Assembly (NCBI GenBank): GCA_021814165.1
Contig: JAKAIX010000002.1
Location: 136,501 to 200,500 of the forward strand
Direction: 5' to 3'
DNA: 64,000 nucleotides
DNA from: a bacterium
GTDB taxonomy: Bacteria; Patescibacteriota; Minisyncoccia; UBA6257; GWB1-50-10
A program made the position numbers and the translations under genes. Below the pieces are notes generated by a model, which saw only the letters and a list, made by a program, of their open reading frames with translations, did not search any database and was not told where the DNA came from. Position 1 is the first letter of the stretch; the number at the start of each line of letters is the position of its first letter. Shown here in pieces: positions 4,111-63,691 of this stretch.

Positions 4111-4971
4111 TCACCCATCATAATTGTACAACATTTCTCCTATCTTTTTTATATCCTCGACACATAGGTTATGCGGGCGGTCGTTCGGTTTTACCCCGAT
4201 TTGTTTCAGACGTTCCGCAACACCATCTTTTTCTGCCTTGTTACACTTCTTTAACGATCGAAAGGCGAGTGTTATGTTGTTTACAATCGTTTTTCTGGGC
4301 TGCCCAAAGAGCGCATGCAGCGTGTCAAAATACCCCTGTTGTTTGCTCGGCGTCTCAACGGGTTGGTGTGTTTCAAGAAGAATGACGGCGGAATCTACTT
4401 TCGGTTTCGGAGCAAAATCATTCTTTCCGACGATCATCACCACCTTCGGTTTCGCCCATAATTGAATGCTTGCCGCAAGGAGATTCATATGAGGAGGCGT
4501 TGCCGTCGCGCGCAGCGCAACCTCTTTTTGGATCATGAATACTGCTCGCTTCGGGAGCATGGACAACCCGCTTATCGTACGGAAGAGGAATCCGGTGAGG
4601 TAGTAGGGAATGTTGCCTACCAGTTTGTAATTTCCAATTTCTAGTTTCCGATTTCTAATTAGTTCCGGAAGAACTTTCAAAACATCCCCATGGATAATTT
4701 CAATTTCGGATAAATTTTCCTTTCGGGGTTCAGAATTTATTTGAAGCTTGTCGTTTGTGATTTGGAATTTTTTTCTTAGAAAATCAACGAGGGCAGGGTC
4801 TTTCTCGATGGCTATGACTCTCACGGGGTAACGTAAAAGCTCCCCCGTGAGTTCGCCGTGCCCGGGACCAATTTCTATAATCACGTCACCGTCCTCCGGC
4901 GCGATGGCGTCGATTATTTTTTTCACCACCGTCTTGTTTTGCAGAAAATGTTGTCCGAGCCTCCTGGTCAT
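4111..4971 (-). CDS. rsmA: 16S rRNA (adenine1518/1519-N6)-dimethyltransferase RsmA/KsgA.
   Basis: N-terminus RLGQHFLQNKTVVKKIIDAIAPEDGDVIIEIGPGHGELT carries the SAM-binding motif, and VGNIPYYLTGFLF matches the KsgA signature. It has a C-terminal helical domain. Confidence 0.85.
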   Translation of the reverse strand: MTRRLGQHFLQNKTVVKKIIDAIAPEDGDVIIEIGPGHGELTGELLRYPVRVIAIEKDPALVDFLRKKFQITNDKLQINSEPRKENLSEIEIIHGDVLKVLPELIRNRKLEIGNYKLVGNIPYYLTGFLFRTISGLSMLPKRAVFMIQKEVALRATATPPHMNLLAASIQLWAKPKVVMIVGKNDFAPKPKVDSAVILLETHQPVETPSKQQGYFDTLHALFGQPRKTIVNNITLAFRSLKKCNKAEKDGVAERLKQIGVKPNDRPHNLCVEDIKKIGEMLYNYDG

Positions 4972-5501
4972 TGTAGTTGCGTTGTTTGTTTGAGAAATGT
5001 TTCGTCGTCTATTTCACCGATAACAATAAGACGCACGAACCCCGAGAGATTTTTTTCTTCGATGGTTTCGAAAATCATGCGCGGGATCGGGCGCTTTCCA
5101 AGAAACACGCTTCTTTGAACGAACGAATATCCCGCACTCGTAAGCGCACTCCGGAGCCAATCGCGTTCTCTCCTCCGTTTTTCGGGAATATCAAACGTGA
5201 TAAGACGCCACTTGCCGTCCCACGGTTCTTCGGGCGGACGCTCTCTTTGTCGAAGAAACTGAAACCCTCTTTCGGAAAGTTTTAGTTCACCTTGTTCCGA
5301 TCGTTCGACTAACCCCCTCTTCTCAAGCCGCCACAGCGTGGTACGGACACTCCCCCGTTTCGCGTGCCTTAGCGCCCCCAGACCGTCGTTTATAATCGCT
5401 TGAATCGGAGCAGATCCCCGTTCGGCAATACCCGACAGAATACCGAGGCCAAGCATCCCCATTCTCCGAGAAGATATATCTTTTTTGCTCCGCACTCGCA
5501 T
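4968..5501 (-). CDS. Small winged-helix regulator, PaaX-like. Its C-terminal half has a Cas2/VapD-like sequence pattern.
   Basis: The N-terminus (TTLWRLEKRGLVERSEQGELKLSERG) is wHTH-like. The C-terminus is WRLITFDIPEKRRRERDWLRSALTSAGYSFVQRSVF, i.e. a hydrophobic strand, D-x-P/E, an Arg cluster, then an SVF motif. It overlaps the rsmA stop by 4 nt. Confidence 0.45.
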   Translation of the reverse strand: MRVRSKKDISSRRMGMLGLGILSGIAERGSAPIQAIINDGLGALRHAKRGSVRTTLWRLEKRGLVERSEQGELKLSERGFQFLRQRERPPEEPWDGKWRLITFDIPEKRRRERDWLRSALTSAGYSFVQRSVFLGKRPIPRMIFETIEEKNLSGFVRLIVIGEIDDETFLKQTTQLQ

Positions 5502-5550
5502 AGTCTCTGTTTGAAATTATTATATCATAACACTTCATTCACGATCGTGG

Positions 5551-6672
5551 GTGAAGTGTTATGCGGTTCTTTTCTTTCCCAGCCTCTTTGCTATACTTAG
5601 TTTCATAAGTACGTTATTTTCCCACGTAAGAACCCTTTTTAAGAGGGGAGCTCCTAAGACGACCAGTTTCTGGTCGGTGCTTTTTGTAGTAATAATGGCC
5701 CTTTTTGGAGGGATTATAAGTGTCGGTGCGAGAGGGATAATCAGCGGTTATGAGGAGGGAAACAACTGGGGTTTTGGTGGGCCTGTTCAGAAACCGGAGA
5801 TGGTTGCCGCGTCAACGGGAGAAAAGAGCTCTTCCGAAGGAACGGGTTCTTCAAACGACGAACGACACACCCTTATCGCGGGAGACACGGCCGTGGTCGC
5901 TTCGTCGGACCCTTTAAGTGATCTTCTCCCCGTAAGCGGAGGGCTTAAAAGATATAAAGTGAAACGCGGCGACACCCTCCAGGGAATCGCCGATCGTTTT
6001 CACGTTTCCCGCGAAACGCTTCTATGGGCGAATCCGGGGGCCTCTTCGGTCCTTACGACGGGACAAACACTCCTGGTACCCCCCGTTTCCGGCGTCGTAT
6101 ACCAGGTTAAGCCGGGCGACACCCTTAAAGAAGTCGGCGGTACGTACGGGGTTGATCTTGAGCTTATAAAAAAATACAACGCGGATTATCAGAACGTACT
6201 AAGCGAGGGCGGAGTACTCATCCTCCCCTATGCGCGCCCGCTCGCTTCAAGCGGTCGCGGAACAACGTCCGCGGATGCCGATCTGCCGAATCTGAAAAAT
6301 TATTTCGCGCTTCCCGCTATCGGATGGAACTGGGGGCAGCTTCATAATTACAATGCGGTAGATATAGCGAATCAATGCGGCACGCCCGTTCATGCCGCGG
6401 CGGAGGGACTCGTGGTGATCGATGAAAATTTCGGGAGCGGCGCGGAAGGATGGAATGACGGATATGGAATCTTTGTTTTGGTCGAACATCCGAACGGAAC
6501 CAAAACTCGCTACGCGCATCTCGCAAAAGCTCTCGTGAAACCCGGCGATTACGTGAATCGCGGAGAAGAACTCGGTCTTATGGGAAACACCGGAAACACG
6601 CACGGACCGACCGGCTGCCACCTGCACTTTGAAGTATATGGAGCGAAGAATCCGTTTGCGGTCACGAAGTAG
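5551..6672 (+). CDS. Membrane-anchored peptidoglycan hydrolase with two LysM domains and a C-terminal M23 (LytM) metallopeptidase domain.
   Basis: The LysM repeats are GDTLQGIADRFHVSRETLLWANP and KPGDTLKEVGGTYGVDLELIKKYN. The M23 motifs are ...HLAKALVKPGDYVNRGEELGLMGNTGNTHGPTGCHLHFEV. Confidence 0.85.
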   Translation: MKCYAVLFFPSLFAILSFISTLFSHVRTLFKRGAPKTTSFWSVLFVVIMALFGGIISVGARGIISGYEEGNNWGFGGPVQKPEMVAASTGEKSSSEGTGSSNDERHTLIAGDTAVVASSDPLSDLLPVSGGLKRYKVKRGDTLQGIADRFHVSRETLLWANPGASSVLTTGQTLLVPPVSGVVYQVKPGDTLKEVGGTYGVDLELIKKYNADYQNVLSEGGVLILPYARPLASSGRGTTSADADLPNLKNYFALPAIGWNWGQLHNYNAVDIANQCGTPVHAAAEGLVVIDENFGSGAEGWNDGYGIFVLVEHPNGTKTRYAHLAKALVKPGDYVNRGEELGLMGNTGNTHGPTGCHLHFEVYGAKNPFAVTK

Positions 6673-6798
6673 TTTAGAAATTCTAAATCCTAACACCTAA
6701 ATCCTAAATAATAACTGAAATCCAAAATCGTAATAGTTGAAACCCGTGTTTGGAATTTTGAATTTTGTGCATTAGAATTTAGAGTTTCGAAATTAGAG
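6672..6798. repeat. Cluster of AT-rich heptamer-like tandem repeats (AAATCCT/GGAATTT/GAAATTA variants) between convergent genes.
   Basis: aaattctaaatcctaacacctaaatcctaaat...ggaattttgaattttg...ttagaatttagagtttcgaaattagag. Related blocks lie at 4621-4668, 21456-21532, 25141-25290, 29950-30032, 52651-52671, 53849-53886, 54688-54754 and 62617-62690. Confidence 0.7.
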
Positions 6799-6799
6799 C

Positions 6800-8338: not shown

Positions 8339-8353
8339 GGATTTTCAATAACC

Positions 8354-8704: not shown

Positions 8705-8746
8705 AAAAAGTACCTACAGATTAGCACACTTTTTTGTTTATTTCCA

Positions 8747-8780
8747 GAAAACCCCGCTTTGTTCAGGCGGGGTTTTCTGT
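8747..8780 (-). terminator. Hairpin plus T-run between two minus-strand genes.
   Basis: AAAACCCCGC...GCGGGGTTTT stem followed by a T-rich tract. Confidence 0.45.
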
Positions 8781-8801
8781 TTGGTTTTATCCGAGCCGCC
8801 T

Positions 8802-9965
8802 CTATTGGAGATGCTGAAGCGCCGCCTTAAATCCGTCGTAGGAGCCGCTTACTATAAGAACGTTTCCGCTCCACCCGTAGTTGATGGAAAAACCGGAATT
8901 CGAGAATGTAAGATAGCGATTTTGAACGCCGCTCGTCTGCCCGTCTTTCCACGACCCCGGGGTTCCCGGATCGGCGGCAAACACACCGGCGAGTCCTTTG
9001 CTTGCTTCGAATGCTTGTGCGAAGGCGGTTTTGAGTCCGGCGAGCGAAGCGGCAGCGTCTGCCTTCGCAATGATGCCGAGCGCTCGGTTGCCGCTCGCGT
9101 TGGTGTAGATAAACTCGGAAACATTAGCGCTTGGAAATCCGTTTAGAAGCGCGCCAGACGAGAAATCTCCTCCGAAAATCGTTTGCATAATTGTCCCGAA
9201 TGAAACGAGATTACCCGTTGCGTCCTTATTTACCACTTCCGTGACGCTCGGCGCCTTAGGAGAAGAGAAGGTGACGCCCGAAAGTGAGGCCCCGGTTATG
9301 ACGGAAGTGCTTTCCGCCGAGACATCTGCTGGTGTTTTAAATACAGACACATGGGATGGCTTTTCAGGCGGAACGGCGGTCTCGGGTGTTGTTGTGGCCG
9401 TTGAGGTGGCCGTAGTCGTGGCGAGAGGCTCTTCTGCCGGAGGAGTTGTTGGAGGAACCTGCGGCTCCGGCGCGGTATTTACAATCGGTGTCGGCTCGCT
9501 CTTGCCGAAGAAAAGAGGATATACCACGAAATAACCGAGTGCCGCGAGCCCCACGACGATAATAAAGACAACCAACGCGACGAAGACGCCGTTTTTCTTT
9601 TTTACGGGCCCCATCGGTGTTTGTTGATTCATTCCTATGTCCATTTTTGGAAGTTCAAACGATTGAGGATTAACGCCGGCGGTTTTTTCCGCAGGCGCGC
9701 TTGGAGAAGCGGCGGCGGGCGCCTGCTGCGGCGTATAGGTTTTCGGCGTCGCGTCACCTGTTTGGATTGAAGAAATATCCGACCCCATCGTTCGCGCTTC
9801 AACGCGCGGGTTTTGTGCCGTATTAATCATCGGCGACTCCCCCTCACCGGTTCCGAGTGGTTTATTCTGTTGCCACTGGCCGGGATTTATAGTTTCGTTT
9901 CCCATGTGTTTATTATAGCACTTGGAGGTCGGGAGGCGTGTGGATAAAAAAAAGAAAATCCCCAA
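8802..9965 (-). CDS. Membrane-anchored Pro/Thr/Ala-rich extracytoplasmic protein of unknown function.
   Basis: One TM helix (VFVALVVFIIVVGLAALGYFVVYPLFF), then a PT-rich linker and a Gly/Ser-rich C-terminal domain. The start could instead be the ATG at 9905 (MGNETINPG). Confidence 0.5.
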   Translation of the reverse strand: MGIFFFLSTRLPTSKCYNKHMGNETINPGQWQQNKPLGTGEGESPMINTAQNPRVEARTMGSDISSIQTGDATPKTYTPQQAPAAASPSAPAEKTAGVNPQSFELPKMDIGMNQQTPMGPVKKKNGVFVALVVFIIVVGLAALGYFVVYPLFFGKSEPTPIVNTAPEPQVPPTTPPAEEPLATTTATSTATTTPETAVPPEKPSHVSVFKTPADVSAESTSVITGASLSGVTFSSPKAPSVTEVVNKDATGNLVSFGTIMQTIFGGDFSSGALLNGFPSANVSEFIYTNASGNRALGIIAKADAAASLAGLKTAFAQAFEASKGLAGVFAADPGTPGSWKDGQTSGVQNRYLTFSNSGFSINYGWSGNVLIVSGSYDGFKAALQHLQ

Positions 9966-12837: not shown

Positions 12838-12840
12838 GCG

Positions 12841-14240: not shown

Positions 14241-14296
14241 GTTCGGTATTGGAGGCTGAGCCTCCGCGAGTAGGAAGCTCAGCCTCCCTGTTTTAA

Positions 14297-16860: not shown

Positions 16861-16932
16861 ATACACATGACGACAACTAATATAGGGAGGCCGGACTTCC
16901 TGACGGAGGTCCGGCCTCCAGAGCCCCCATGA

Positions 16933-20145: not shown

Positions 20146-21453
20146 TTAGTAATTTCGCTGAATGATTTGATTGATGGCATTTTGCGCTGCCACAAGCGCA
20201 TCTAACGGCCTTTCTTTGTCCGACACGACTGCGCGGACCATCTGCGAGAATACCCTTCTCGCGGCATTTTTGTCCCGTTCGTCCCACGATCGCGCGATCA
20301 ATGCCTGCCGGGCGAATACGCTGAGCGTCGGATCGTTTTGATATTGATAAAGAAGCGAATTTAATGCCGGAGGCTTCCCTGTTTGCGCCGGGTAACTGTT
20401 GGCAATAACGGCGTTTGTCGTCATTTGGAGGATAAAATCCCACGCAATCGTCGGATATTTGGTTTGCCGTGAGACAACATACCCCCAGTAATCGGGAAGC
20501 GCGATCGGCGTCACGGCATTTTTCGGCTGGGGCACCGGCGCGATCTCGAAATTCAGATATGCATTCCTTGCCTTGAGTTCTGGAATGGAAGAGGCATAGT
20601 CGAAAATCATGGTAACTTTTCCCTGACCGAATGCATCTCTTGCGTTCTGCATCGAATCGTTCCATGTGTAGGCCCTGGAGTTCGGATCGGCGAACTGCGT
20701 GTAGAACGTGAGCGCCTGAAGCCCGAGTTCTCCCGAAAACGAAGGCGCTCCGCGTTCCCCGATCTTGGATCCGTTTTGGAGCATGAGGAGCGAGAGGAGA
20801 TCCGAGCCGGTAGGAATAGTGTCGTCGGTTCCCCCGATGGCCGCTCCCGCCTGCGTAATCGCGCCTTTTGCATCTTTTGTTACGAGTTTCGGCACCGTAT
20901 TCAAGAAATCTTCCCAGCTCTGCCATGAATTAGGGAGCGGAACCCCCGCACGATCGAAGAGATCTCTGTTATAGATAAGCGCGAGCGTATCGATCGAGAG
21001 TGGCAGTCCGTATATGTTGTTTTGTTGATAGAAATCCTGCGTGACGACTTGTGGGAAAAGTTGTTTCAGTTGGAGCAAAGAAAGGGATGTCTGCGGCACA
21101 GGCATGATCTTGTTAATCTGTCTCGGTACGTCGGTGTTCCGTATCATGAAAATATCGGGGCCGGTCCCCGCCGCGAGCGCGTCAAGCAACGCCGCGTCGT
21201 AATCGGAAGGATTTGAAAATCCGCGGTACGTGATTTTTACATTCGGGTAGATGGTCGCGAAGTTTTGGAGTGCAGCCGAATAAGTTACCTCATTGTCGTA
21301 CACGCCCCACATCGTAAGCGTCGCCTTTGTCTGGTGCGGATCGTTCGTCGTGGTACGGAGCCCGGGGATAACGCCCAATAGTACGAGTACGATCGCAATC
21401 ACGACCGCACCGCCGATAAGGAGAACAACTTTTTGAGAATGAGTTAATGACAT
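20146..21453 (-). CDS. ABC-transporter extracellular solute-binding protein (family 1, sugar/oligosaccharide-type), N-terminally anchored.
   Basis: An N-terminal TM/signal anchor, then an SBP_bac_1-like sequence (...MWGVYDNEVTYSAALQNFATIYPNVKITYRG...). The overlapping ORF 20141..20926 is an alternative frame of this gene. Confidence 0.7.
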   Translation of the reverse strand: MSLTHSQKVVLLIGGAVVIAIVLVLLGVIPGLRTTTNDPHQTKATLTMWGVYDNEVTYSAALQNFATIYPNVKITYRGFSNPSDYDAALLDALAAGTGPDIFMIRNTDVPRQINKIMPVPQTSLSLLQLKQLFPQVVTQDFYQQNNIYGLPLSIDTLALIYNRDLFDRAGVPLPNSWQSWEDFLNTVPKLVTKDAKGAITQAGAAIGGTDDTIPTGSDLLSLLMLQNGSKIGERGAPSFSGELGLQALTFYTQFADPNSRAYTWNDSMQNARDAFGQGKVTMIFDYASSIPELKARNAYLNFEIAPVPQPKNAVTPIALPDYWGYVVSRQTKYPTIAWDFILQMTTNAVIANSYPAQTGKPPALNSLLYQYQNDPTLSVFARQALIARSWDERDKNAARRVFSQMVRAVVSDKERPLDALVAAQNAINQIIQRNY

Positions 21454-21530
21454 AAATTTTCAATTACCAATCAATTTTACAATTTCCAAAAACGTTTATT
21501 GAAAATTGATCATTGAAACTTGGAAATTCG

Positions 21531-24053
21531 TTAGAGACATACGATTCCCACCAACGTATCCCCCTTCTCGAGATTCATGATTTTCACCCCTTGTGTTGCG
21601 CGGCTCAAGATTCGTATATCCTTCAGGTTTGCGCGGAGTGCCTGGCCTTTTGAGGAGAATGCGAGCACCCCCTCCACTTCCTCGTCCACGATATGCGCCC
21701 CGATCACGGGGCCTGTCTTTGCGGTAATCTTTGCGGTTTTGATTCCCGATCCGCCCCGGCGCTGAAGTTTGTACTCTTTTATGGAAGTTTGTTTCGCAAA
21801 TCCGTTCGCCATTACCGCGAGCACCCGGAGTGAGATTTTGCTCCCCTTCTCCAAATCCTCTTTTCTTATTATATCAAGTCCGCTCACCGCATCTTGTTTC
21901 TTGAGGTTCAGCGCTCGCACTCCCGCCGCACTCCTTCCCATGCTCCGCACGTCTTTTTCTTTAAAACGGATCGCCTGTCCCATCGCCGTAACGAGTACGA
22001 TTTGATCATCGCCGCTTGAAAGGCGCACCCACTCCAAGAGATCTCCGCCTTGGAGTCTAACCGCGATGATGCCGGTCCTCCGCACGTTCCCGAAATCCTC
22101 GAGCGGCGTGCGTTTAATGATGCCTTGTCGCGTCGTCATGACGAGAAAGTGTTTGGCGTGTTCCGCCTTGTCTTCGATGTAGTGCTGGGGGTAGGTGACA
22201 ACCGCGCTCACCTTCTCGTTTGTGGGAATATCGAGAAAGTTATAGACCGACTTTCCCTTTGCGGTGCGACTTGCAACGGGAACCTCATACACTTTTGTTT
22301 GAAACACCCGCCCCTTCGTTGTGAAGAAAAGGATATTATCGTGAGTGTCCGCCGAAAGCAGTTCGTAAATCTGATCCTCCTCCTTCAAGTCAAAGCCGAT
22401 AAGCCCCTTTCCCCCGCGCTTCTGCACGCGGAACGTTCCCGGCGGCATGCGTTTGATGTAGCCGTCTTCGGTAAGAGTGATAAGCGCCTCTTCCTTGGGA
22501 ATCAGATCCTCTTCTTTAAATTCCTTGAGTCCGCCCGCGATAATGCCCGTGCGTCTCGGGTCGGGAAATCCTTTCTTCAGCTCTTCGAGGTCGCGCTTAA
22601 TTATACCGAGAATTCGTTTCGGTTCTTTAAGAATGAGTTTCAATTCCGCAATAAGTTTTTTCTTCTCCTTGAGCTCGTCCTCGAGCCTCTGCCGCTCGAG
22701 CGCCGCCAGGCTCTGGAGTTTCATCTCGAGGATCGCGTCCGCTTGAATGGGGGTAAGCTTAAAATTCTTTACCAGGTTTTCCCGGGCATTTTCTTTGTCC
22801 TTCGATTTTTTGATCGTGGCGATGATCTTATCGATTACGCCCAAGGCCTTCACAAGGCCTTCCAGAATGTGTGCCCGCTCCTCCGCCTTCCTCAGTTCAA
22901 ATTCCGTGCGGCGGCGGATCACGATCTTTCTATGGTCGAGATATGCGCTCAAAATATCTTTTAAGGAAAGAATCTCGGGTTTCAAGCCGTTCGTCAGAGC
23001 GAGCATATTGTAATGGAAATTCTTCTGAAGCTCTGTATATTCGAAAAGCTGGTTCAATATACGCTGTGCTCGCACGTCGTTTTTGAGTTCAATAACAATC
23101 CTCAATCCTTCTCGGTCCGATTCGTCCCGCACATCCTTGATCCCCTCGATTTTCTTTTCCTGCACGAGTTCCGCAATTTTCGTGATTAAGGTCGACTTAT
23201 TCACCTGATACGGGATCTCGGAGACGACGATCTGGAAACTTCCGTTCTTGCGCTCTTCTATCTCGGTTTTCCCTCTGGTGGTAATGGATCCCTTCCCTGT
23301 CGCGTAGGCCTCCTCAAGCGCGCGGCGGTCGTACACAATGCCGCCCGTCGGGAAGTCGGGTCCTTTCACAAACTGCATAAGTTCTTTTACGTCGCTCCCC
23401 GGGTGATCCGCGAGGTGAATGGTCGCATCGGCGATCTCGACGAGATTGTGCGGCGGAATGGAGGTTGTCATGCCGACCGCGATGCCTACCGCTCCGTTCA
23501 AGAGGAGATTTGGAAGTTTTGCCGGAAGGAATCCCGGCTCCTCGCGCGTCGCGTCATAGTTCGGTACCCACTCGACGGTTTCTTTTTCGATATCCGTGAG
23601 AAGTTCCTCGGAAATTTTCGAGAGGCGCGCTTCCGTGTATCGCATCGCTGCGGGGGAATCGCCGTCGATCGATCCCCAGTTCCCTTGCCCGTCGATCAGT
23701 GTGTAGCGAAGCGAGAAATCCTGCGCCATGCGCGCCATCGCGTCATAGACCGCCATATCGCCGTGCGGGTGATAGCGGCCGAGCACCTCCCCTACCACGT
23801 TCGCCGATTTTTTGAATTTCGCGCCGTGCGTAAGACCGGAGTCCCACATCGCCCACAAAATTCTCCGTTGCACGGGCTTCAATCCGTCCCGTACGTCGGG
23901 AAGCGCCCGCGAAACGATCACCGACATCGCGTAGTCGAGATATGATTCGCGGAGTTCTTCGGTAATCTCGCGCGGTTCAATGCGCTGATTCGGGGTATTG
24001 GGCTCTTCGTGTTGTTTGTTATGTGGCATAGTGTGTCGTTTCGATTGTAACAC
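21531..24053 (-). CDS. gyrA: DNA gyrase subunit A.
   Basis: [25 protein letters not shown]...[19 protein letters not shown] contains the catalytic Tyr region, followed by C-terminal beta-pinwheel repeats. Confidence 0.95.
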
Positions 24054-25105: not shown

Positions 25106-25327
25106 TACCTACTATTATATGTCTCCGAGTTATTCTTTTCAATGAAATTACCCGCTTTCGGATGGAAATCGTATGTCTCTAAAACGAAATCCAATGGCAG
25201 AAATTCTAAATTCAAAACACGCGTTTCAGTCATTATGATTTCGTATTTTGGCCATTATTTAGGATTTAGGGATTAGATATTAGAATTTCGTTCGTCGTTT
25301 GGTCGGCTTGCATTCAGACCTTAAGCC

Positions 25328-29944: not shown

Positions 29945-30015
29945 TTAATTATCAATTTCCAATTTTCAGTGAATTTCAAAATTTTAGAATTGAAAAATTA
30001 ATTGAACATTGATCA

Positions 30016-43569: not shown

Positions 43570-43760
43570 TAGAGTTAGAAAAGAGATTTATTAGAAAAAA
43601 CAGGAAAACAAGGAAAAACTGAAAAAGCTGAAAAACCTGATAATGCGATGAAACCTAGATTTCCGCATAAACACTACAAAATTTTGGCTAAAAAACAGAG
43701 AAGCTGATAGTGCGATGAAACCTACATTTTTTCAAAAATAGGCCTTCAAAATGGCAAAAT
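43570..43760. repeat. AT-rich spacer with an imperfect 27-nt direct repeat (c/gctgata(a/g)tgcgatgaaaccta(g/c)attt) about 60 nt apart, plus GAAAAA(C/G)CTGAAAAA iterations.
   Basis: cctgataatgcgatgaaacctagattt occurs at about 43636, and gctgatagtgcgatgaaacctacattt at about 43696. The block is upstream of yraN. Confidence 0.55.
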
Positions 43761-51753: not shown

Positions 51754-54000
51754 CTACCACTTCTCGATCATAAGGAGTGATGACGTGTCGGGGAATTCCC
51801 GATAGATTGTTTCGGTGATGAAAGGAAGAAAGGGATGAAGCAGCTTCAATGATTCTCTGAGCGTATAAAAAAGGATCGCCTGCGTATTTTTCTTGAGTTT
51901 TTCGTCTTCCATCTGTTTTTTGGATATCTCGAGATACCGATCGCAGAACTCGTGCCAGAAGAAGTCATAGAGTTCATGGAGCGCTCTTGAAAACTGGAAC
52001 GACTCGATGTATTTCCCCGTGTTCTTTTTCGTTTTTTCGAGCGCTTTCAATATCTTTGTGTCCGCCTTTGTTTTTGCGGTTGGTTTCTTGTTCAAATTCG
52101 CGGACTTCAGATCTTTCGTTTGTTCCAGAACAAACCGGCTCGCGTTCCAGATTTTGTTGGTAAACTTTCTTCCTGCAATGACAGCCGCCTCGTCCCATCG
52201 GATGTCCTGTCCCGATGCCTGCCAGATGACGGCAAACCTTGTTGCGTCCGCGCCGTATTCGTCAACATACTTCAGGGGATCGATCCCCGTTCCGAGCGAT
52301 TTTGACATCCGTTTCCCGTCCTTTGTAAGCACCGTTCCGTGAATAAGCACGTTCCGGAAGGGGATATTTCCCATAAACTCGAGTCCGGAGAAAATCATGC
52401 GCGTATCCCAGAGATTCAGGATTTCGCGCGCATTCGAGACGAGATTTCCGGGATAGTATTTCTTCCGATCCTCTTTCGAAAGTCCCGCGAAAGGCCAGAG
52501 CGCAGATGAAAACCAGGTATCCAGAACGTCAGGCGATTGCTCCATGTCACATTTTTTACAGAACGGACACGTCTTCGGCTTTTCTTTTGCCACAACAAAT
52601 CCTCCCGTGTTTTGAGTTTCGTTTTCAGAATTTCGCGTTTGTTTATCATTTGGAATTTGGAATTTGGAATTTGCTTCCTGTTTATTTTTACAAAAATAAA
52701 CAGGAAGCTGGTGCCCCCACCAAATCTGTCTCGAAATCGTCCAGTCCTTGATATTCGAAAGCCACGAGCCATATGTTTTTTCGAAATTTTTCGGTTGAAT
52801 AATCACCTTTTTCTTCTTCACAACATCCAGCGCCTCTTTCGCGAGTCGCTCCATCTTCAAAAACCACTGTGTCGAGGGGATCGGTTCGATCGCGTGTCCG
52901 CAACGGTAGCACACCGCAAGGTTGTGCCCATATGACTCTTCTTTTTCGAGAAGCCCGACCGTCTTCAGATCTTCCACAATCTTCTTTCGTGCATCCTCCG
53001 TTTTCATCCCCGCATACTTTCCAGCCTTCTCGTTCATTCTTCCGCGTTCGTCGATCACCTGCACGAGCGGCAGGTCGTGCCGATTGCCGATCTCGAAGTC
53101 GGTCAGGTCGTGCGCGGGGGTAACCTTTACCGCGCCCGTACCGAATTCCCTGTCAACGGCTTCATCGGCGACCACGGCAATCTTATTTTTCTTTTTTACG
53201 GGCGTGTCGAGCGAACCGTCCACCGAGAGCGACTCGATTTCGAGTTCTTTCCCGACATACTGTTTATACTTGGGGTCGCGCGGGTGAACCGCAATTCCCG
53301 TATCGCCGAACTTCGTCTCGGGACGAGTCGTCGCAAGCGTGAAAGGGCCGTATTTGATGTAGTAGAGCGTCGTCTGTTCCTCCTTATACTCAAGTTCGAG
53401 ATCCGACAAACTTGTCTGGCATCGCGGACACCAGTTTACGGTGCGGAGACCGCGGTAGAGCATACCCTTCTCGTAGTAGTGAATAAACGCGTCGATAACA
53501 TCCGCGGCATAAGCATCGTCCATCGTGAAGCGCGCGCGCGACCAGTCGGCCGAGAGCCCGAGTTTTTTAAGTTGTTCCAGGATCTTCCCGCCGTACTCCT
53601 TCTTCCATTCCCATACGCGCTCGATGAACTTCTCCCGTCCCAGATCGAAACGCGTTTTACCTTCTTTCTTCAACTGTTTTTCGACGACATACTGTGTCGC
53701 AATGCCCGCATGGTCCGTACCGGGAAACCAGAGCGTTCGTACTCCTTTCATTCGGTAATACCGAATGAGAATATCAGGAGTCGTGTTATCCAAGGCATGT
53801 CCCATATGAAGCGTTCCCGTGACGTTCGGGAGGGGCATGTACACAACATAATTTTCAATTTTCAATTTCCGATTTCCAATTTTGCGAATAGGAAGATTGT
53901 CCGGATTGAAATAGCCGGATTTTTCCCATAGGTCATAGATTTCCGATTCGGTTTGTTTTGGATCGTAGGGTTTCGAAAAATCAGCGCCCATAGCCCACAT
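51754..54000 (-). CDS. valS: Valyl-tRNA synthetase, compact and without a long C-terminal coiled coil.
   Basis: MPLPNVTGTLHMGHALDNTTPDILIRYYRMKGVRTLWFPGTDHAGIATQ aligns with ValRS. The KMSKS motif is present (RMSKSLGTG). It carries two in-frame repeat insertions. Confidence 0.85.
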   Translation of the reverse strand: MWAMGADFSKPYDPKQTESEIYDLWEKSGYFNPDNLPIRKIGNRKLKIENYVVYMPLPNVTGTLHMGHALDNTTPDILIRYYRMKGVRTLWFPGTDHAGIATQYVVEKQLKKEGKTRFDLGREKFIERVWEWKKEYGGKILEQLKKLGLSADWSRARFTMDDAYAADVIDAFIHYYEKGMLYRGLRTVNWCPRCQTSLSDLELEYKEEQTTLYYIKYGPFTLATTRPETKFGDTGIAVHPRDPKYKQYVGKELEIESLSVDGSLDTPVKKKNKIAVVADEAVDREFGTGAVKVTPAHDLTDFEIGNRHDLPLVQVIDERGRMNEKAGKYAGMKTEDARKKIVEDLKTVGLLEKEESYGHNLAVCYRCGHAIEPIPSTQWFLKMERLAKEALDVVKKKKVIIQPKNFEKTYGSWLSNIKDWTISRQIWWGHQLPVYFCKNKQEANSKFQIPNDKQTRNSENETQNTGGFVVAKEKPKTCPFCKKCDMEQSPDVLDTWFSSALWPFAGLSKEDRKKYYPGNLVSNAREILNLWDTRMIFSGLEFMGNIPFRNVLIHGTVLTKDGKRMSKSLGTGIDPLKYVDEYGADATRFAVIWQASGQDIRWDEAAVIAGRKFTNKIWNASRFVLEQTKDLKSANLNKKPTAKTKADTKILKALEKTKKNTGKYIESFQFSRALHELYDFFWHEFCDRYLEISKKQMEDEKLKKNTQAILFYTLRESLKLLHPFLPFITETIYREFPDTSSLLMIEKW
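52651..52708. repeat. Three TGGAATT heptamers plus a perfect 16-17-bp hairpin (gcttcctgtttattttt / aaaaataaacaggaagc) inside valS.
   Basis: catttggaatttggaatttggaatttGCTTCCTGTTTATTTTTacaAAAATAAACAGGAAGCtgg. The minus-strand translation is ...FCKNKQEANSKFQIPNDKQ..., lying between Cys pairs of ValRS. Confidence 0.75.
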
Positions 54001-54043: not shown

Positions 54044-55177
54044 CTATAAGTTTAAATTCGCTTGCGCGGTGATCCTTTTATTCTTTTTTCGAAGATAGGA
54101 GATATATCCCGCGACGCCGATCATAACGCCGTTGTCCGTATTGAAGTCCATTGGAGGCGCGATAAAACCAATCCTCATTTTTTTACTCGTAGCTTCCAAC
54201 TTCTCGCGGAGCGAGGCGTTCGCCGCGACGCCGCCGGAAAGAAAGATCGATCTTGCTTCATATTCTTTTGCCGCACGCGTCGCCTTCGTGACGAGCACAT
54301 CGAGCGCCGCTTCTTGAAATGAAGCAGCGACATCCGCTTTCAATTTCCTGGAGGCTGAGCCTCCTACTCGCGGAGGCTCAGCCTCCTTTCTATCTCGCAG
54401 GTAATAAAGTACAGATGTTTTGAGGCCGGAGTAGCTGAAATCATAACTCTTGTCATGAATCATCGGTCGCGGAAATTCAATCGCATGAGAATTTCCTTGT
54501 TTCGCGAGTTTCTGAATTTCCGGACCGCCGGGATAGGGAAGGTCGAGCATTTTTGCGACCTTATCGAACGCCTCGCCGACCGCGTCGTCTCTTGTTTCCC
54601 CGAGTTTCTTCCACTTCGTGAGTGAATCCATCTTTAGAAGTATAGTGTGCCCCCCGCTTACGATAAGCGCAATTGCTGGAAAAAGTTTTCGTTTTGAAAA
54701 TTGAAAATTGTCCTCCGAAGGAGGATCCGCCTCCGGTGGAAAAATTGAAAATTCAGCTTTTTGCTTCAGTAAAAAGCTGTAGAGATGTCCCTCCAGATGG
54801 TTGACGCCGATAAGTTTGAGTTTCGAGTTTTTCTTCTTTAGATTTTTGTACAGCTCTTTTGCAAAATTGACGCCCGTCCAGAGTGCCGGTTCAAGGCCGG
54901 GACCGACAGTGACGGCGATCGCGTCCAATGCGAGGAGGCCCGGCTTCTTACCGGAGGCCGGGCCTCCAACTAATTCCTCAAGTACGACCGGAAGATTCTT
55001 CAGGTGTTCCCGTTTTGCGAGATTCGGTACCACGCCACCCCACGGACGGTGTACTTCAATTTGAGATGAGATTACGTTCCCCAGAATCTTGAATTGCGGC
55101 GCACTAAGCCCCCCCGTCGCTTCGAGTAATGCGAGAGCTGTTTCGTCACAACTGGTCTCTATGGCTAAGATTCTCAT
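54044..55177 (-). CDS. tsaD: tRNA N6-adenosine threonylcarbamoyltransferase TsaD (Kae1/YgjD).
   Basis: MRILAIETSCDETALALLE, the HLEGH metal site, and ...VSGGVAANASLREKL. It carries three in-frame repeat-derived insertions. Confidence 0.9.
   Translation of the reverse strand: MRILAIETSCDETALALLEATGGLSAPQFKILGNVISSQIEVHRPWGGVVPNLAKREHLKNLPVVLEELVGGPASGKKPGLLALDAIAVTVGPGLEPALWTGVNFAKELYKNLKKKNSKLKLIGVNHLEGHLYSFLLKQKAEFSIFPPEADPPSEDNFQFSKRKLFPAIALIVSGGHTILLKMDSLTKWKKLGETRDDAVGEAFDKVAKMLDLPYPGGPEIQKLAKQGNSHAIEFPRPMIHDKSYDFSYSGLKTSVLYYLRDRKEAEPPRVGGSASRKLKADVAASFQEAALDVLVTKATRAAKEYEARSIFLSGGVAANASLREKLEATSKKMRIGFIAPPMDFNTDNGVMIGVAGYISYLRKKNKRITAQANLNL
54350..54386. repeat. GC-rich hairpin repeat (ggaggctgagcctcc-N8-gaggctcagcctcc) embedded in-frame in tsaD.
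   Basis: It is the reverse complement of the intergenic copy at 14251-14289, and encodes EAEPPRVGGSAS inside TsaD. Confidence 0.75.
54688..54754. repeat. AT-rich direct repeat (gaaaattgaaaatt, two copies) flanking a small GC hairpin, in-frame inside tsaD.
   Basis: ttttgaaaattgaaaattg-tCCTCCGAAGGAGGatccgCCTCCGGtgg-aaaaattgaaaattcagc. It encodes EFSIFPPEADPPSEDNFQFSK on the minus strand. Confidence 0.7.
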
Positions 55178-57854
55178 TTTTCACATTGTTAATCGAAGAG
55201 GGGAAAGAGTCAAAAGCAGGGATGTCATGCCGTGTCAAAACGTTGCCGTCTTTTTCTTTCCTTGCAGAGAAAAAATCGAGGAGCGAGACCGTAATAACGC
55301 AGAAACTCGGGAAAGAGAGGATGAGTAATATAATCACCCACATAACCGCGTCCCTATGCAGAAAGCCGTAAGAATAAAGAAGAACAATCACACTCGCGGA
55401 GAACCACAGCGCCAAGAAAACATGGATCCACATCCTTTTTAGAAGTGAAATAAAGGTCGTGAGAGCCGTACCATTTCCTTCCTGGGCGATTCGCGTGCGC
55501 AAGAACGGTTTTTTGGGAAATAGGAATCCTTCCCAGATTGCGAGAGAAATAGTCGGCGTAAGCGCCGCCCCGGAGACCATCGCTGCAATTATCTGGAAAA
55601 TGTTTTTTGTGACCCGTTCCCTGTATACAAGGAAAATGGAGAGAAGGAGGAACAGAAAATAGAATATCGAGGGGTAAAGGAATTGCGACGGCGGAAAGAA
55701 TCTTTGATCAAAAATAACAAGAGCGCTTCCCAACATTCCGAGGAAAATAAAGAGCGGATAGAGCGCTTGTGCGAACCACACCGCCCATTCGCCGACAAAA
55801 TAGAAAGTCTGCGTCGGCGTGAACGCGGAATTGATCCCGAAAAGTTTTTTGAAATGCCGCAGCACGATGCGCACCGCTCCGTACACCCACCTGAATCGTT
55901 GCCTCCGGTATGCGGAAAAAGTATGTGCGGGATCTCCCACTCCCAGCGTCTTGTGCACGTAATACATGGAGTATCCCTCGGCGAGAATGCGAACGCCCAG
56001 TTCCGCATCCTCGGTGATGGATTGTTCGCTCCATCCTCCCATTTTTTCCAGTATGTTTCTTCGTATAAGCGTCATTGTCCCATGCTGTATGATCGCGTTC
56101 CTCTCATTGCGCTGCACCATCCCGATCTCGAAAAAACCGGCGTATTCGTGGTGTATAAATCGTTTAAAGAGATTTGAATCCTGCGTCCTGTGAACCTGCG
56201 GCGCCTGGACCACGGCGATATGCGGATCGGAGAAATATCCCGCGGTTTCCGTAAGCCAACTCGGAAATACTTCGTAATCCGCATCCACAACCCCGATGAT
56301 TTCCGCATCCGGGGCGGTCTGTGACAACCCGAAGTTGAGCGCGCCCGCCTTGAATCCCGGGCACGAATCAAGATGAAAAAACCGCACGATACCGGGATAC
56401 CGCTCTGAAAATTCAAAAACCGGCTTCCATAAACGTTCGTCGCTCGTGTTGTTGTCGATGACAATTATCTCCTTATTGGGATAATCAAGCGAGAGCAGGC
56501 TTCGAATCGCGCGGATGACGATACGGGGATCCTCGTCTCTCGCGGGAACATGAATGGAAACCTTCGGCGTGTTTTCTCGCGGAGGAAGGGGGATTACGTT
56601 TGTTAATCTCCTTTTTCCTATAACCTCAACAACTTCCACGGTTTGGATGAGCGTGAGAAAAAGAAGAAAAAACTGCGTGGGAAGCACGAAAAGCCACAAA
56701 AATGGCCTTCGCACCATGTACTCGCTTATCGCCGTTTGGCTTATAATGCTCGCGATGAGGGAAGATGCGGCGATGATCGAGATGCCGAAGAGAAGTCCCG
56801 CGGCGGAAAGATCGCGGAAAAGGTAAAGGAATATCGCGCCCAATAGTATGATGACGGCGGTCGTGCCCATGGCCCAATACTCCCAATTCCGGTCGTTCGT
56901 GACGGATCCGGTCAGCGAAAACTTTATCTTTTTCCCGGAATCGAACAGCCCCCAGTGAGCTCCCACTCTCCCTTCGTCGTACATCTTCCACGGTTGGTCA
57001 AAGGCCTCGAAAACATTGTATTGGATGCCCTCGCTCTTTGCTTGGGACGAGAACGCTCTTATGAAATAAGCCTGACCTACCAGGCTCGGAATTGATTCCC
57101 CGCGCTGTGCGCCGAGAGAGGGCCACCCGGTTTCTGTCACGAACACCATTTTCCCTCCGGCGATCTTCTGCGCTTCTTTATATTCTTCGACTGTCCACTT
57201 CACCGAATCTTCTATCGGAACGGAGGCCCAGTAAGGGAGCGCGTGGAGTCCCACCACGTCCACCGCCCCGAGGAGATCCTGATTATTGCGCCATTCGGCG
57301 AGCCGCTCCGACGCTCCCACCGGTATTGCCACCTGTTGCCTTACGCGTTCGATGTAGTCGATCAGTTTCTGTTTGGAAATTCTGTTAAATTGCAGAACCT
57401 CGTTTCCCACGAACGCCATCGTTATATTCCTGTTTTTCGCTATCGTCTGGATGAGCGTATCCACTTCTCTTTTATCCTCGTTTTCGTCTTTCCCTTCAAT
57501 CCACGCGCCTCCTATCACCGTCATGTTGAATTCCTTCGCAATCTGCGGCACCAGCTCCATCCCGTGAGTCGCGTGATATATCCGCACGCAGGGGGAAATT
57601 TGTGAAATAAGACGGAGATCGCTTCTAATCTGCTCCTCCGTAACGGCGAAGTTCTTTTTCGTAATGTCCCCCTCGAAGATATACCGGGGATCGTAGCTTA
57701 TACATTGGAATTTCGTCGCCGAAGCGACTATGCTCTTTTCCAAAAATAAAAATCTCCACACCAGCACCATCGCCGCGGAGAGTACTACGAGAAATAGAAT
57801 CCCTATGATTATGCCGCTCTTCCGTCCCGCGACGCGATGAACCATATCACCCAT
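55146..57854 (-). CDS. GH17 (beta-1,3-glucanosyltransferase-like) and GT2 fusion membrane protein; beta-glucan synthase-like, NdvB-type architecture.
   Basis: The GH17 catalytic motifs are AFVGNEVL and VFVTETGWPSLG. There are about 6 TM helices. The GT2 domain has D,D,D...Q-x-x-R-W (RRQRFRWVYGAV). Confidence 0.75.
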   Translation of the reverse strand: MGDMVHRVAGRKSGIIIGILFLVVLSAAMVLVWRFLFLEKSIVASATKFQCISYDPRYIFEGDITKKNFAVTEEQIRSDLRLISQISPCVRIYHATHGMELVPQIAKEFNMTVIGGAWIEGKDENEDKREVDTLIQTIAKNRNITMAFVGNEVLQFNRISKQKLIDYIERVRQQVAIPVGASERLAEWRNNQDLLGAVDVVGLHALPYWASVPIEDSVKWTVEEYKEAQKIAGGKMVFVTETGWPSLGAQRGESIPSLVGQAYFIRAFSSQAKSEGIQYNVFEAFDQPWKMYDEGRVGAHWGLFDSGKKIKFSLTGSVTNDRNWEYWAMGTTAVIILLGAIFLYLFRDLSAAGLLFGISIIAASSLIASIISQTAISEYMVRRPFLWLFVLPTQFFLLFLTLIQTVEVVEVIGKRRLTNVIPLPPRENTPKVSIHVPARDEDPRIVIRAIRSLLSLDYPNKEIIVIDNNTSDERLWKPVFEFSERYPGIVRFFHLDSCPGFKAGALNFGLSQTAPDAEIIGVVDADYEVFPSWLTETAGYFSDPHIAVVQAPQVHRTQDSNLFKRFIHHEYAGFFEIGMVQRNERNAIIQHGTMTLIRRNILEKMGGWSEQSITEDAELGVRILAEGYSMYYVHKTLGVGDPAHTFSAYRRQRFRWVYGAVRIVLRHFKKLFGINSAFTPTQTFYFVGEWAVWFAQALYPLFIFLGMLGSALVIFDQRFFPPSQFLYPSIFYFLFLLLSIFLVYRERVTKNIFQIIAAMVSGAALTPTISLAIWEGFLFPKKPFLRTRIAQEGNGTALTTFISLLKRMWIHVFLALWFSASVIVLLYSYGFLHRDAVMWVIILLILSFPSFCVITVSLLDFFSARKEKDGNVLTRHDIPAFDSFPSSINNVKNENLSHRDQL

Positions 57855-58325: not shown

Positions 58326-58342
58326 AAAGAGCATCTTCTTGT

Positions 58343-59839: not shown

Positions 59840-59843
59840 TACC

Positions 59844-60362: not shown

Positions 60363-60366
60363 CGCG

Positions 60367-62190: not shown

Positions 62191-62205
62191 CAAAGTTTGA
62201 AAATC

Positions 62206-62261
62206 GGTCTGAGGCCCGGCCTCCGAGACCTGCCTGCGCAGGCAGGGGAAGCCGGGCCTCA
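62206..62261. repeat. Hairpin repeat with the nested palindrome; it doubles as the terminator downstream of the 607-aa surface-protein gene.
   Basis: ggtctgaggcccggcctcc-gaga-CCTGCCTGCGCAGGCAGG-ggaagccgggcctca, followed by TCGGTTTTTATTC. Confidence 0.7.
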
Positions 62262-62314
62262 TCGGTTTTTATTCATTCGTTGTAAGTTTCGGGTTATTTG
62301 TTTAGAATCTCCTT

Positions 62315-63691
62315 ATGGATTCGTTCGAAAAAATTGCGAGCCTAGCGAAGAGAAGAGGGTTCATCTATCCCGGTTCCGAAATTTACGGCGGGCTCGCGGG
62401 TACGTGGGATTACGGCCCGTTGGGTGTTGAGCTGAAACGGAATCTCAAGAACGAATTTTGGCGATCGATGGTGCAGCTTCGCGATGATGTGGTGGGTATC
62501 GATGCGGCAATCGTGATGAGCCCGAAAGTATGGGAGGCATCCGGACACCTTGAGTCATTTGCCGACCCGCTTGTGGAGTGCAAAAAATGCCACCATCGAT
62601 TTCGTCCGGACGAAATCGCAAATTCTAAATCCGAAGCACCAAATCCTAAACAAATTCGAAATTCAAAATCGGAAATTAAAAACAAAAACGAGGAACTGCG
62701 ATGCCCCGAATGTGGCGGCGAACTTACTGAGCCGAAGCAGTTTAATCTGATGGTTGAGACGTACCTCGGTGTCGTCGAGGGAGAAAAGCTAAAAACGTAT
62801 CTCCGCGGCGAGATTACGCAGGGCGTACACGTGAATTTCAAGAACGTGCTCTCCTCGACGCGCGTAAAGCCGCCGTTCGGGGTCGCTCAGATCGGGAAGG
62901 CGTTCAGAAACGAAATCACGCCGGGCGGATTTACCTTCCGATCGCGCGAATTCGAACAAATGGAGCTCCAGTTCTATACGAAACCGGACGAGGAAGAATC
63001 AATGAAGTGGTTCGAGTACTGGAAAGAGGAACGTCTTACGTGGTATCTCTCCCTCGGCGTTAAAAAAGAAAACCTTCATTTCAAAGAGCACGCGAAAGAC
63101 GAGCTCGCGCACTATGCGCGCGCCGCATTCGACATCGAATATCGGGTGGACGGCGTATGGAAAGAGATGGAAGGAATCCATCATCGCGGCGATTGGGACG
63201 TGAAACGCCATCAGGAGTCTTCGAAAGAAGATATGACATACTTCGATGAAGAGACGAAAGAGCGTTACCTGCCGTACATCGTCGAAACGTCGGGGGGGGT
63301 GGACCGGGCGGCGCTTTTTCTTCTCATCGACGCCTACGAAGAGGAGAAACTCGAAGGAGGGGACGAACGAACGGTGTTGAAGCTTCACCCGAAACTCGCG
63401 CCCTACAAAGCGGCGGTGTTTCCGCTTCTCGCAAACAAGCCGGATCTGGTAAAACTCGCGAAGACGATTTACGACGATTTGAAGAGAGAGTTTATGGTAA
63501 CGTGGGATGATCGCGGTAATATCGGAAAGCGTTATCGAGCGCAGGATGAAGCCGGAACCCCCTTTTGCGTTACCGTGGACTTCGACAGCTTGGAAAAGCA
63601 CGACGTCACCGTCCGCGACCGCGACTCGATGAAACAGGACAGGGTTTCCATTAAAGAACTCAAGAGTTATTTCTCAAAAAAATTGGAGTAG
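62315..63691 (+). CDS. glyQS: Glycyl-tRNA synthetase, alpha2 dimeric type.
   Basis: RRGFIYPGSEIYGGLAGTWDYGPLGVELKRN (motif 1), a zinc-knuckle insertion, and a C-terminal anticodon-binding domain. It has an in-frame AT-rich repeat expansion. Confidence 0.9.
   Translation: MDSFEKIASLAKRRGFIYPGSEIYGGLAGTWDYGPLGVELKRNLKNEFWRSMVQLRDDVVGIDAAIVMSPKVWEASGHLESFADPLVECKKCHHRFRPDEIANSKSEAPNPKQIRNSKSEIKNKNEELRCPECGGELTEPKQFNLMVETYLGVVEGEKLKTYLRGEITQGVHVNFKNVLSSTRVKPPFGVAQIGKAFRNEITPGGFTFRSREFEQMELQFYTKPDEEESMKWFEYWKEERLTWYLSLGVKKENLHFKEHAKDELAHYARAAFDIEYRVDGVWKEMEGIHHRGDWDVKRHQESSKEDMTYFDEETKERYLPYIVETSGGVDRAALFLLIDAYEEEKLEGGDERTVLKLHPKLAPYKAAVFPLLANKPDLVKLAKTIYDDLKREFMVTWDDRGNIGKRYRAQDEAGTPFCVTVDFDSLEKHDVTVRDRDSMKQDRVSIKELKSYFSKKLE

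Follow-up and report, generated by a model that had tools for sequence, protein, structure and literature searches.

Tandem arrays of heptamers are known from Xanthomonas (unit GGGAATC) and Nostoc (GGGGAYT), where they (in the latter case Nostoc/Anabaena) are scattered over the genome close to stop codons, frequently as two arrays converging in inverted orientation, and differ from one close species to another; the arrays typically comprise about four units and cluster at gene ends (within about 50 bp), with 32% of them intragenic in Nostoc (PMC4692102). The Rickettsia palindromic elements (RPEs), small repeats found in frame and translated in unrelated housekeeping genes at fold-compatible positions, and also between genes, provide a second precedent (PMC10969869). 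In the 64-kb stretch of contig JAKAIX010000002.1 analysed here (the window, by which the whole stretch is meant), AT-rich heptamer arrays with a unit close to GGAAATT/AATTTCC occupy intergenic spacers and also lie in frame inside genes such as those of valyl-tRNA synthetase (ValRS, valS) and glycyl-tRNA synthetase (GlyRS, glyQS). On balance, and with fair rather than full confidence, they are best explained as a small, slippage-prone and copy-spreading repeat family, one and the same in genes and in spacers.

The arrays share with the Xanthomonas and Nostoc heptamers, including the short tandemly repeated repetitive sequences (STRR) of cyanobacteria, the tandem 7-nt unit (G-run, A-run, T(C)), the dispersed location, the inverted pairs at gene ends able to form stem-loops, the variation in length and sequence between close species and a sizeable intragenic share. 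They differ in their AT-rich unit (GGAAATT), whose G-run is GG at most, with many units (AAATCCT, GAAAATT) holding one G or none, so that no G-quadruplex is expected from the sequence and the rationale built on such structures is not transferable; in the proportion inside open reading frames (ORFs), which is about half for the window's arrays and about two thirds for those sampled from metagenomes, among the matches listed; in their small-genome host of the candidate phyla radiation (CPR); and in the presence of a five-unit module common to coding and non-coding copies and of perfect palindromes adjoining the arrays. The likeness to the RPEs is the in-frame residence in housekeeping genes at tolerant positions, together with the intergenic copies; however, RPEs measure about 100-150 bp and have a fixed consensus and a conserved peptide, whereas the intragenic copies described here are 20-75 nt long, mostly single-armed and built of variable heptamer units, evolve in place like microsatellites and have only a 33-nt module in common. 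No literature was found that links Parcubacteria, Patescibacteria or CPR bacteria to heptamer repeats or to palindromic elements in genes.

The arrays are non-random. Tandem Repeats Finder returned 44 rows for the window, 10 of them with period 7, against 1.67 expected and a maximum of 5 in 100 third-order Markov shuffles, which preserve local composition; this is a 6-fold enrichment of that period. A scan of both strands for at least four tandem NNAAWTN units, in which 14 or more of the 16 core positions matched, yielded 21 strand-hits corresponding to 12 distinct arrays; over 30 shuffles, the average was 0.67 and the highest count 4. A first-pass annotation, made from the sequence alone, had reported AT-rich heptamer-like tandem repeats in spacers and in frame in genes, and these 12 arrays, against about 0.7 in shuffled sequence, bear it out. 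All units reduce to NNAAWTN and read GGAAATT, GGAATTT, GAAAATT or CTAAATC on either strand, with AAATCCT also among the unit forms; the longest perfect run is (GGAATTT)x3 in the window, up to x5 in relatives and up to x10 on metagenome contigs. About half of the window's arrays are inside ORFs.

Five intergenic tandem blocks had been listed by the annotation. Four of them are heptamer arrays, not as plain runs but as two arrays each in inverted orientation, predicted to fold into long AT-rich hairpins; the fifth, at 43570, has period 9 (AAAAACNGR) and a different sequence and was excluded from the family. All four elements adjoin stop or start codons:

6672-6797: element E6672, left arm (CTAAATC)n at 6676-6710, right arm the inverted array at 6749-6796 (scan arrays 6676-6710 and 6769-6796); fills the spacer between the two convergent stop codons of the M23-peptidase and yifB genes; fold z = -2.7 (plus strand) and -3.95 (minus strand)
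21450-21535: element E21450, left arm of AATTTYC units, right arm of GRAAATT units (scan array 21502-21530); between the gyrA stop codon and the start of the next gene
25165-25300: element E25160, inverted arrays at 25200-25220 and 25256-25290 (the latter a scan array); in a divergent promoter region, between divergent starts
29945-30033: element E29940 (scan arrays 29945-29973 and 29998-30033); between the stop codon at 29944 and the start of the next gene; fold -25.5 kcal/mol, z = -4.6

Over about 110 nt, non-repeat core (GAAACNCGTGTTT) included, E6672 and the reverse complement of E25160 are 78% identical, and E21450 aligns with E29940 at 81%; on these alignments, the four elements appear as two pairs of homologous copies.

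The kinship extends to genes. The right arms of E21450 and E29940 match three intragenic arrays of relatives, namely those in tsaD and at valS site 2 of L083 (a syntenic locus, 84% identical to the window in ValRS and 87% in GlyRS) and at valS site 2 of L004, at 91-94% identity over 31-32 nt without gaps. Six copies align gapless to a five-unit module of about 33 nt, GAATTTYCAATTTCCAATGATCAATTTTCAAAACG, which (at 31-35 nt) holds the non-repeat unit AATGATC; as the module is common to tsaD and valS of L083, the peptide F[PS]ISN[DG]QFSKR occurs in both of its proteins. Furthermore, an identical canonical unit is found in 9 of 119 within-genome array pairs, compared with 1.4% of pairs between genomes (permutation p = 1e-4); for instance, two valS sites of L022 both have CCAAGTT, and two in L014 both have AAATCCG. 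The unit type is genome-specific, and purely local slippage does not predict that unlinked arrays of one genome share it. Taken together, the alignments argue that the window's arrays are one sequence family spanning coding and non-coding sites, and the wording of the first-pass annotation, "slippage-prone or mobile micro-elements", is a fair description of such a dispersed DNA family, present also between genes.

The intragenic arrays all read in frame. They are single arms of 20-75 nt, variable in length and unstructured (fold z from -1.6 to +1.8), and are given here with their host genes, the identities of which were checked by NCBIfam on ten ORFs (gyrA and further genes were confirmed likewise):

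4111-4971, minus strand: rsmA
4620-4663, minus strand: rsmA array, sense AGAAATC GGAAACT AGAAATT GGAAATT, encoding RNRKLEIGNYKL
30979-32232, plus strand: glyA, serine hydroxymethyltransferase (SHMT)
31705-31733, plus strand: glyA array, CCAATTC CCAATTC GAAATTC, encoding PIPNSKFLIS
51754-54000, minus strand: valS
52640-52674, minus strand: valS site 2, sense (AAATTCC)x3 then AAATGAT, encoding NSKFQIPND
53841-53891, minus strand: valS site 1, sense CAAAATT GGAAATC GGAAATT GAAAATT GAAAATT, encoding KIGNRKLKIENY
54044-55177, minus strand: tsaD
54691-54754, minus strand: tsaD array, sense (G)AATTTTC AATTTTT ... AATTTTC AATTTTC AAAACG, with its partner half at about 54740-54754 (scan array 54684-54711)
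62315-63691, plus strand: glyQS
62611-62690, plus strand: glyQS array, about 10 degenerate NNAAATY units, encoding ANSKSEAPNPKQIRNSKSEIKNKN between CKKC and CPEC (scan array 62611-62684)

The arithmetic of the heptamer may favor such residence. Three units make seven codons and, because 7 and 3 are coprime, all three frames give one cyclic 7-residue peptide: AAATTCC gives NSKFQIP, AATTTCC gives NFQFPIS, AATTTTC gives NFQFSIF, AAATCCG gives KSEIRNP and GGAAATT gives GNWKLEI, which are exactly the peptides of the window and its relatives; none of the units used in genes has a stop codon in any phase. The site-2 peptide of ValRS falls between the FC residues and the cysteines of CPFCKKC, as the annotation had it for NSKFQIPN, whereas NRKLKIENY, which it also placed between Cys pairs, lies near the N-terminus, at site 1, before the HIGH motif. 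At its array, TsaD is 22 aa longer than the Thermotoga protein; the inter-Cys loop of GlyRS, which had been estimated as about 8 aa longer than typical, exceeds that of Mycobacterium by 5 aa and that of the closest relative by 24 aa. The glyA array is additional to those first reported, and L005 and L008 carry other heptamer-coded peptides at the same site.

Orthologue comparison covered ValRS, TsaD, GlyRS and SHMT from 37 CPR loci and 18 database homologues, together with the syntenic locus L083. The closest ValRS relatives among GTDB species representatives are metagenome-assembled genomes (MAGs) of Candidatus Jorgensenbacteria, Paceibacterota and Patescibacteria (L003 at 87%, L004 at 70% and L005 at 69% identity); therefore the window, with a GC content of roughly 50%, is read as part of a CPR (Parcubacteria) genome, and its host would be an uncultivated, Jorgensenbacteria-like member of that group. 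At each intragenic array, the state differs among the window, L003, L083 and L004. Neither the two valS arrays nor the tsaD array occurs in L003; in L083 the valS arrays are different ones, the tsaD array runs without interruption and 24 codons are cleanly missing from glyQS, the array of which is kept as a homologous peptide (ANSKxEAxxxKQIxN) by L006, at 78% identity, but has been deleted in the nearer L083. This pattern in glyQS looks like the expansion and deletion behavior expected of a simple sequence repeat (SSR), and some arrays, such as the GlyRS array common to the window and L006, are old. The alignments of ValRS, GlyRS and TsaD orthologues that the annotation had proposed as a check thus agree with lineage-variable segments, which L003 (87%) and L083 (84%) lack or carry at other lengths. 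Other heptamer-coded peptides occur at the same loops in at least 15 Parcubacteria: NSKLKIKNY at ValRS site 1 in many lineages and, in more distant members, SISNSQFSN, NNQFLISK and SSKFQVPSSK at ValRS site 2 and SNFKFQISK and NPKSKILNPK in the TsaD loop; across Parcubacteria, ValRS has at least four sites with such peptides.

Palindromes are found next to arrays beyond expectation, the clearest of them in valS:

52673-52708, minus strand: valS palindrome, 17 bp and perfect, loop of 2 nt; directly adjoins the site-2 array on its 5' side

Its left arm consists of the codons of the conserved QLPVYFC and its right arm is the reverse complement, encoding KNKQEA. The same palindrome, perfect over 14-17 bp and in every case with a heptamer array after it, also occurs in valS of L083, L004, L005, L006, L009, L012, L022 and L024, and most orthologues without the palindrome are also without the array, L036 and L008 being partial exceptions. 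Among these sequences, 7 of 16 pairs are changed on both sides and none on one side, with no G-U pair; in 500 shuffles these values were never reached. Where the Pro, Val, Tyr and Phe codons change synonymously, the right arm shows matching residue changes (Q, P or L; N or T). Quasipalindrome template switching perfects imperfect inverted repeats, one arm being copied from the other (PMC7202029); as proposed here, pairs without G-U and with every change compensated would be observed because quasipalindrome correction yields exactly such an outcome. From the exclusively Watson-Crick pairing we infer that the palindrome is kept up by a DNA-level process, with selection on an mRNA hairpin as the alternative, and it seems to be the complement of the DNA strand that determines which amino acids the right arm encodes. 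Quasipalindrome mutagenesis, studied in E. coli and yeast, would explain a coding palindrome that is perfect through seven compensated changes; it is known as a mutational hotspot and is undescribed as a long-term keeper of a palindrome in an essential gene across a bacterial class. Around the metagenome arrays, among the matches listed, perfect palindromes (stem of at least 8 bp) are 6-fold more frequent than at random positions (7.6% versus 1.3%).

A second repeat type is nested in the first. A 30-nt GC-rich palindromic insert, CCACCGGAGGCGGATCCTCCTTCGGAGGAC, at 54710-54739 splits the tsaD heptamer array, which is intact in L083; the direct-repeat flanks that had been taken as a sign of a mobile element are the halves of this split pre-existing array and not a target-site duplication (TSD). 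Nearly the same 30-mer (28/30 by hand count) is present in opposite orientation in valS of L003 and L083, at a place where the window's valS has none, and the element would accordingly be dispersed or mobile on this comparison. For the related form GGAGG-N5-CCTCC, the window has 7 occurrences where 0.76 are expected, 4 of the 7 being in tsaD:

14251-14265, 16905-16919, 45458-45472, 54350-54364, 54372-54386, 54720-54734 and 54953-54967: GC mini-palindromes, GGAGG(C)-N-(G)CCTCC

These mini-palindromes encode peptides of the GGSAS, GGPAS and EADPP types. The looser form GGAGG-N2-9-CCTCC is also above chance, while the GC hairpin 13-mer CCTCCTTCGGAGG, with up to 2 mismatches, is not. In L083, an inverted heptamer pair lies inside the tsaD ORF at 9008-9080, with (AGGAATW)x4, a loop and four CTAATTC-like units, giving EIMNQELGIRNKGSLIHNSKFLIP; the window carries a GC palindrome (54953) at this site, and therefore the loops seem to accept whichever small repeat is around. 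The GC mini-palindromes are probably the other, "first" repeat system to which the annotation had opposed the heptamers, and its idea of two compositionally opposite systems holds, with the GC-rich one sitting physically inside the tsaD array. From cyanobacteria, Elhai and colleagues reportedly described in 2008 small dispersed repeats (SDR) nested in heptamer arrays; the 30-nt GC-rich mini-element inside the tsaD array recalls them, in another host phylum and with other sequences.

Outside the closest relatives, period-7 arrays are 3-fold denser in CPR loci than in Firmicutes and other loci retrieved with the same query. Perfect (GGAAWTT)x4 is found on at least 120 metagenome contigs, with GC contents of 28-68% among the matches listed; in the same set, 84 of 124 arrays belong to stretches of 150 aa or more without a stop codon, and coding arrays almost never exceed four perfect units, with up to 10 in non-coding ones. 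Hosts that were spot-checked are LeuRS, IleRS and RecG. An association with phages was considered and rejected, since (GGAAWTT)x4 was found on just 2 viral contigs out of 2.9 million.

Some of these metagenome genes deserve a separate mention. Five sequences from different organisms (L099, L103, L141, L146 and L194; GC 0.32-0.55) share an identical (AATTTCC)x4, encoding FPISNFQFPI, at one LeuRS site in the context G[KR]SEGA..[array]..VFTTRP, an identity to be read with the ascertainment bias of a scan pattern that selects this unit, though its recurrence at a single site stands out all the same. In the IleRS fragment of L188, the C-terminal half is preceded by an inserted domain resembling histidine phosphatases/PGM (NCBIfam dPGM_arch, ribazole phosphatase), and LeuRS of L099 and L120 contains a NUDIX-like insertion, as judged by eye; these are whole-domain insertions in CPR-type synthetases, besides the repeat-coded loops.

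The process that these observations suggest, in which the arrays form one copy-spreading family, can be outlined as follows. Array length and unit make-up would change by replication slippage and concerted homogenization, and new copies, like the adjacent palindromes, would arise by short-range template switching or by ectopic copying or conversion between repeats, and not through a dedicated transposase. Between genes, the family would take the form of inverted array pairs, present as hairpins at gene ends and copied to several spacers, where they may act, if at all, like mRNA-end structures of the repetitive extragenic palindromic (REP) and bacterial interspersed mosaic element (BIME) type. 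Inside genes, one arm only would survive, where the frame is kept and a variable surface loop tolerates it, and would be translated into a low-complexity peptide rich in K, N, S, I, F and Q, tolerance being aided by the frame-independent cyclic peptide and the stop-free units. The recurrence of sites at the same loops across Parcubacteria and the variation of the arrays between close relatives are observed, as is the excess of palindromes beside them.

Several points weigh against this explanation. Within populations, no variants were seen in the 90% identity clusters of five host proteins, all 5-6 contigs of each being identical; the exact GlyRS of the window is also encoded on DAIBYO010000002.1 (GCA_027423885.1) and on 14 other public contigs, although these 15 are identical by construction, having been retrieved by an exact-sequence look-up. 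The E-values of the arm matches (6e-7 to 2e-4 in 2.1 Mb, by BLAST) are optimistic for AT-rich low-complexity sequence. An nhmmer profile of the module gave strong scores for the training copies alone, for which the scores are circular, and E = 0.01-0.4 for the other arrays of the window; therefore the module represents one subfamily and not the whole family. The sharing of units within genomes could come in part from genome-specific base composition or from peptide selection, and the conservation of NSKLKIKNY at ValRS site 1 and of the GlyRS array in L006 could mean that the inserts, once formed, are ordinary selected protein loops. For the copying mechanism, neither hallmarks of transposition (fixed termini, TSD) nor an associated enzyme were found for the arrays. 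Finally, the term insert does not suit every case: the RsmA array corresponds in the alignment to a segment of B. subtilis KsgA that is variable, not conserved and of the same length and, as the GlyRS loop is also about as long in Mycobacterium, the arrays occupy variable loops and sometimes lengthen them, rather than always creating them. The placement in surface loops put forward by the annotation holds insofar as the sites are indel-prone when compared with PDB homologues and are modelled in ValRS as coil, with a predicted local distance difference test (pLDDT) score that stays under 50 at the two arrays, residues 37-46 and 438-462, in an AlphaFold2 model of moderate quality (mean pLDDT 71.5), of low confidence in some conserved parts too, which supports this placement without proving it; a lengthening is absent in RsmA relative to KsgA and is only 5 aa in the GlyRS loop relative to Mycobacterium.

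The same features could be produced by purely local drift, AT-rich loops rich in Lys and Asn and AT-rich spacers gaining heptamer periodicity by slippage with neither copying nor kinship among arrays. Heptameric SSRs are over-represented in bacteria generally, which has been attributed to polymerase slippage (PMC4692102, citing Mrazek 2007), and the imperfect state of the arrays, their evolution in place, the homology of the valS site-1 and glyQS arrays between lineages and the lack of TSDs or fixed ends in our searches all fit such drift. What drift does not accommodate is a module of 31-35 nt, with its non-repeat AATGATC, in intergenic hairpins and in two different genes, the alignment of intergenic elements over about 100 nt through their non-repeat cores, or genome-specific units at unlinked sites; moreover, composition-keeping third-order Markov shuffles give only about 0.7 arrays. 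Drift as the whole explanation is therefore considered unlikely.

Selection for function would make the hairpins terminators, mRNA stabilizers or arrays of sites bound by a DNA- or RNA-binding protein, and the basic peptides aids to tRNA binding or, through mRNA structure, to the tuning of translation. The position of the hairpins exactly at gene ends, where they fill whole spacers, points in this direction, as do the sigma-70-like, promoter-like hexamer pairs inside E29940 and E25160, the conservation of NSKLKIKNY-type peptides at ValRS site 1, the maintenance of the valS palindrome by compensatory changes over deep divergence and the fact that this ValRS, matching positions 2-695 of 860, seems to do without the C-terminal coiled coil. 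Nevertheless, the closest relatives, L003 and L083, do without the inserts, unit sequence varies from genome to genome, and a palindrome without any G-U pair favors DNA-level templating over selection at the RNA level. A terminator scan did not call the heptamer hairpins as intrinsic terminators, whereas canonical GC-rich ones are present elsewhere in the window, and Rfam at gathering score returned only 3 tRNAs for the whole window and no match at the arrays. Function as the primary cause is accordingly regarded as rather improbable. A related proposal, that the arrays are contingency SSRs for phase variation, was rejected: each host is an essential enzyme encoded in single copy, and the arrays, which are imperfect, lie in mid-gene, where a 7-nt change would be lethal and not regulatory.

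A more speculative extension, to which only a slight probability is given, sees arrays, palindromes and nested GC mini-palindromes as left behind by a sequence-templated DNA process that is active in CPR bacteria and typical of them, or the heptamers as a conserved cis-code read by an as yet undescribed protein. The templated process might consist in fold-back synthesis that hairpins prime at stalled forks or breaks, or in a templated addition of the reverse-transcriptase or telomerase type, the template of which would set the genome-specific unit. If true, such a process would continuously write short repeats into essential genes and be a main source of lineage-specific protein insertions in CPR bacteria.

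Transposition in the classical sense, as a non-autonomous element of the REP type or a miniature inverted-repeat transposable element (MITE), mobilized in trans, for example by a REP-associated tyrosine transposase (RAYT) or an IS200/IS605-type enzyme recognizing the hairpins, appears very unlikely. The intergenic copies do resemble such palindromes, including REP/BIME, in being multi-copy, homologous, hairpin-forming, about 90-130 nt long and located in short spacers of co-directional or convergent genes; in-frame insertion in housekeeping genes recalls the Rickettsia RPEs (PMC10969869), and sister genomes differ in which genes carry the 30-nt GC-rich palindromic element. Their stems, however, are AT-rich and made of tandem heptamers, and the ends of the pairwise element alignments show no discrete terminal inverted repeat or TSD, though the arms are inverted arrays. 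In addition, the intragenic copies are single arms of variable length that grade into degenerate arrays, the homologous but diverged arrays at orthologous sites suggest long residence and not repeated insertion, no RAYT or transposase link was seen, with no transposase among the identified products of the window (ten ORFs scanned, the ORF list being unannotated), and only 2 matches were obtained in 2.9 million viral contigs. An assembly or binning artefact is next to inconceivable for, although MAG assemblies can mis-join at repeats, identical proteins with their arrays are found on 5-15 independently assembled contigs (NCBI, ENA, Logan), long essential ORFs stay in frame through all arrays and the same phenomenon recurs in dozens of unrelated MAGs and metagenomes.

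CPR bacteria combine tiny genomes with core enzymes full of odd lineage-specific insertions. With arrays spreading as a single family through genes and spacers, a good share of the inserts in ValRS, GlyRS, TsaD, SHMT and RsmA, and elsewhere in LeuRS, IleRS and RecG, would be translated copies of a DNA repeat and not "protein" innovations, and the family that also builds the intergenic hairpins would be a concrete source of protein-length variation in the CPR radiation. The bacterial heptamer repeats known from Xanthomonas and Nostoc would be extended to an AT-rich form that invades essential genes, annotators and phylogeneticists would have to treat such loops as repeat-derived, and the valS palindrome would be a naturally occurring example of an amino-acid sequence apparently set by DNA-level templating.

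Three further features of the window were recorded. ValRS has 748 aa and matches just positions 2-695 of the 860-position NCBIfam model; a frameshift or truncation was suspected and ruled out by the same end point in all CPR orthologues, and the C-terminal coiled-coil tRNA-binding domain seems absent in this CPR clade. Between tsaD and a DoxX-like gene, at 55146-57854 on the minus strand, there is a gene for a 902-aa family 2 (GT2, cellulose-synthase-like) glycosyltransferase, absent from the otherwise syntenic L083 locus. The divergent promoter region at 43597-43640 contains period-9 A-rich repeats (GAAAAACNG), and a 26-nt direct repeat, CTGATARTGCGATGAAACCTASATTT, follows in two copies at 43637-43662 and 43705-43730, about 68 nt apart; both are unrelated to the heptamers, and the repeats of 43597-43730 may be candidate operator sites.

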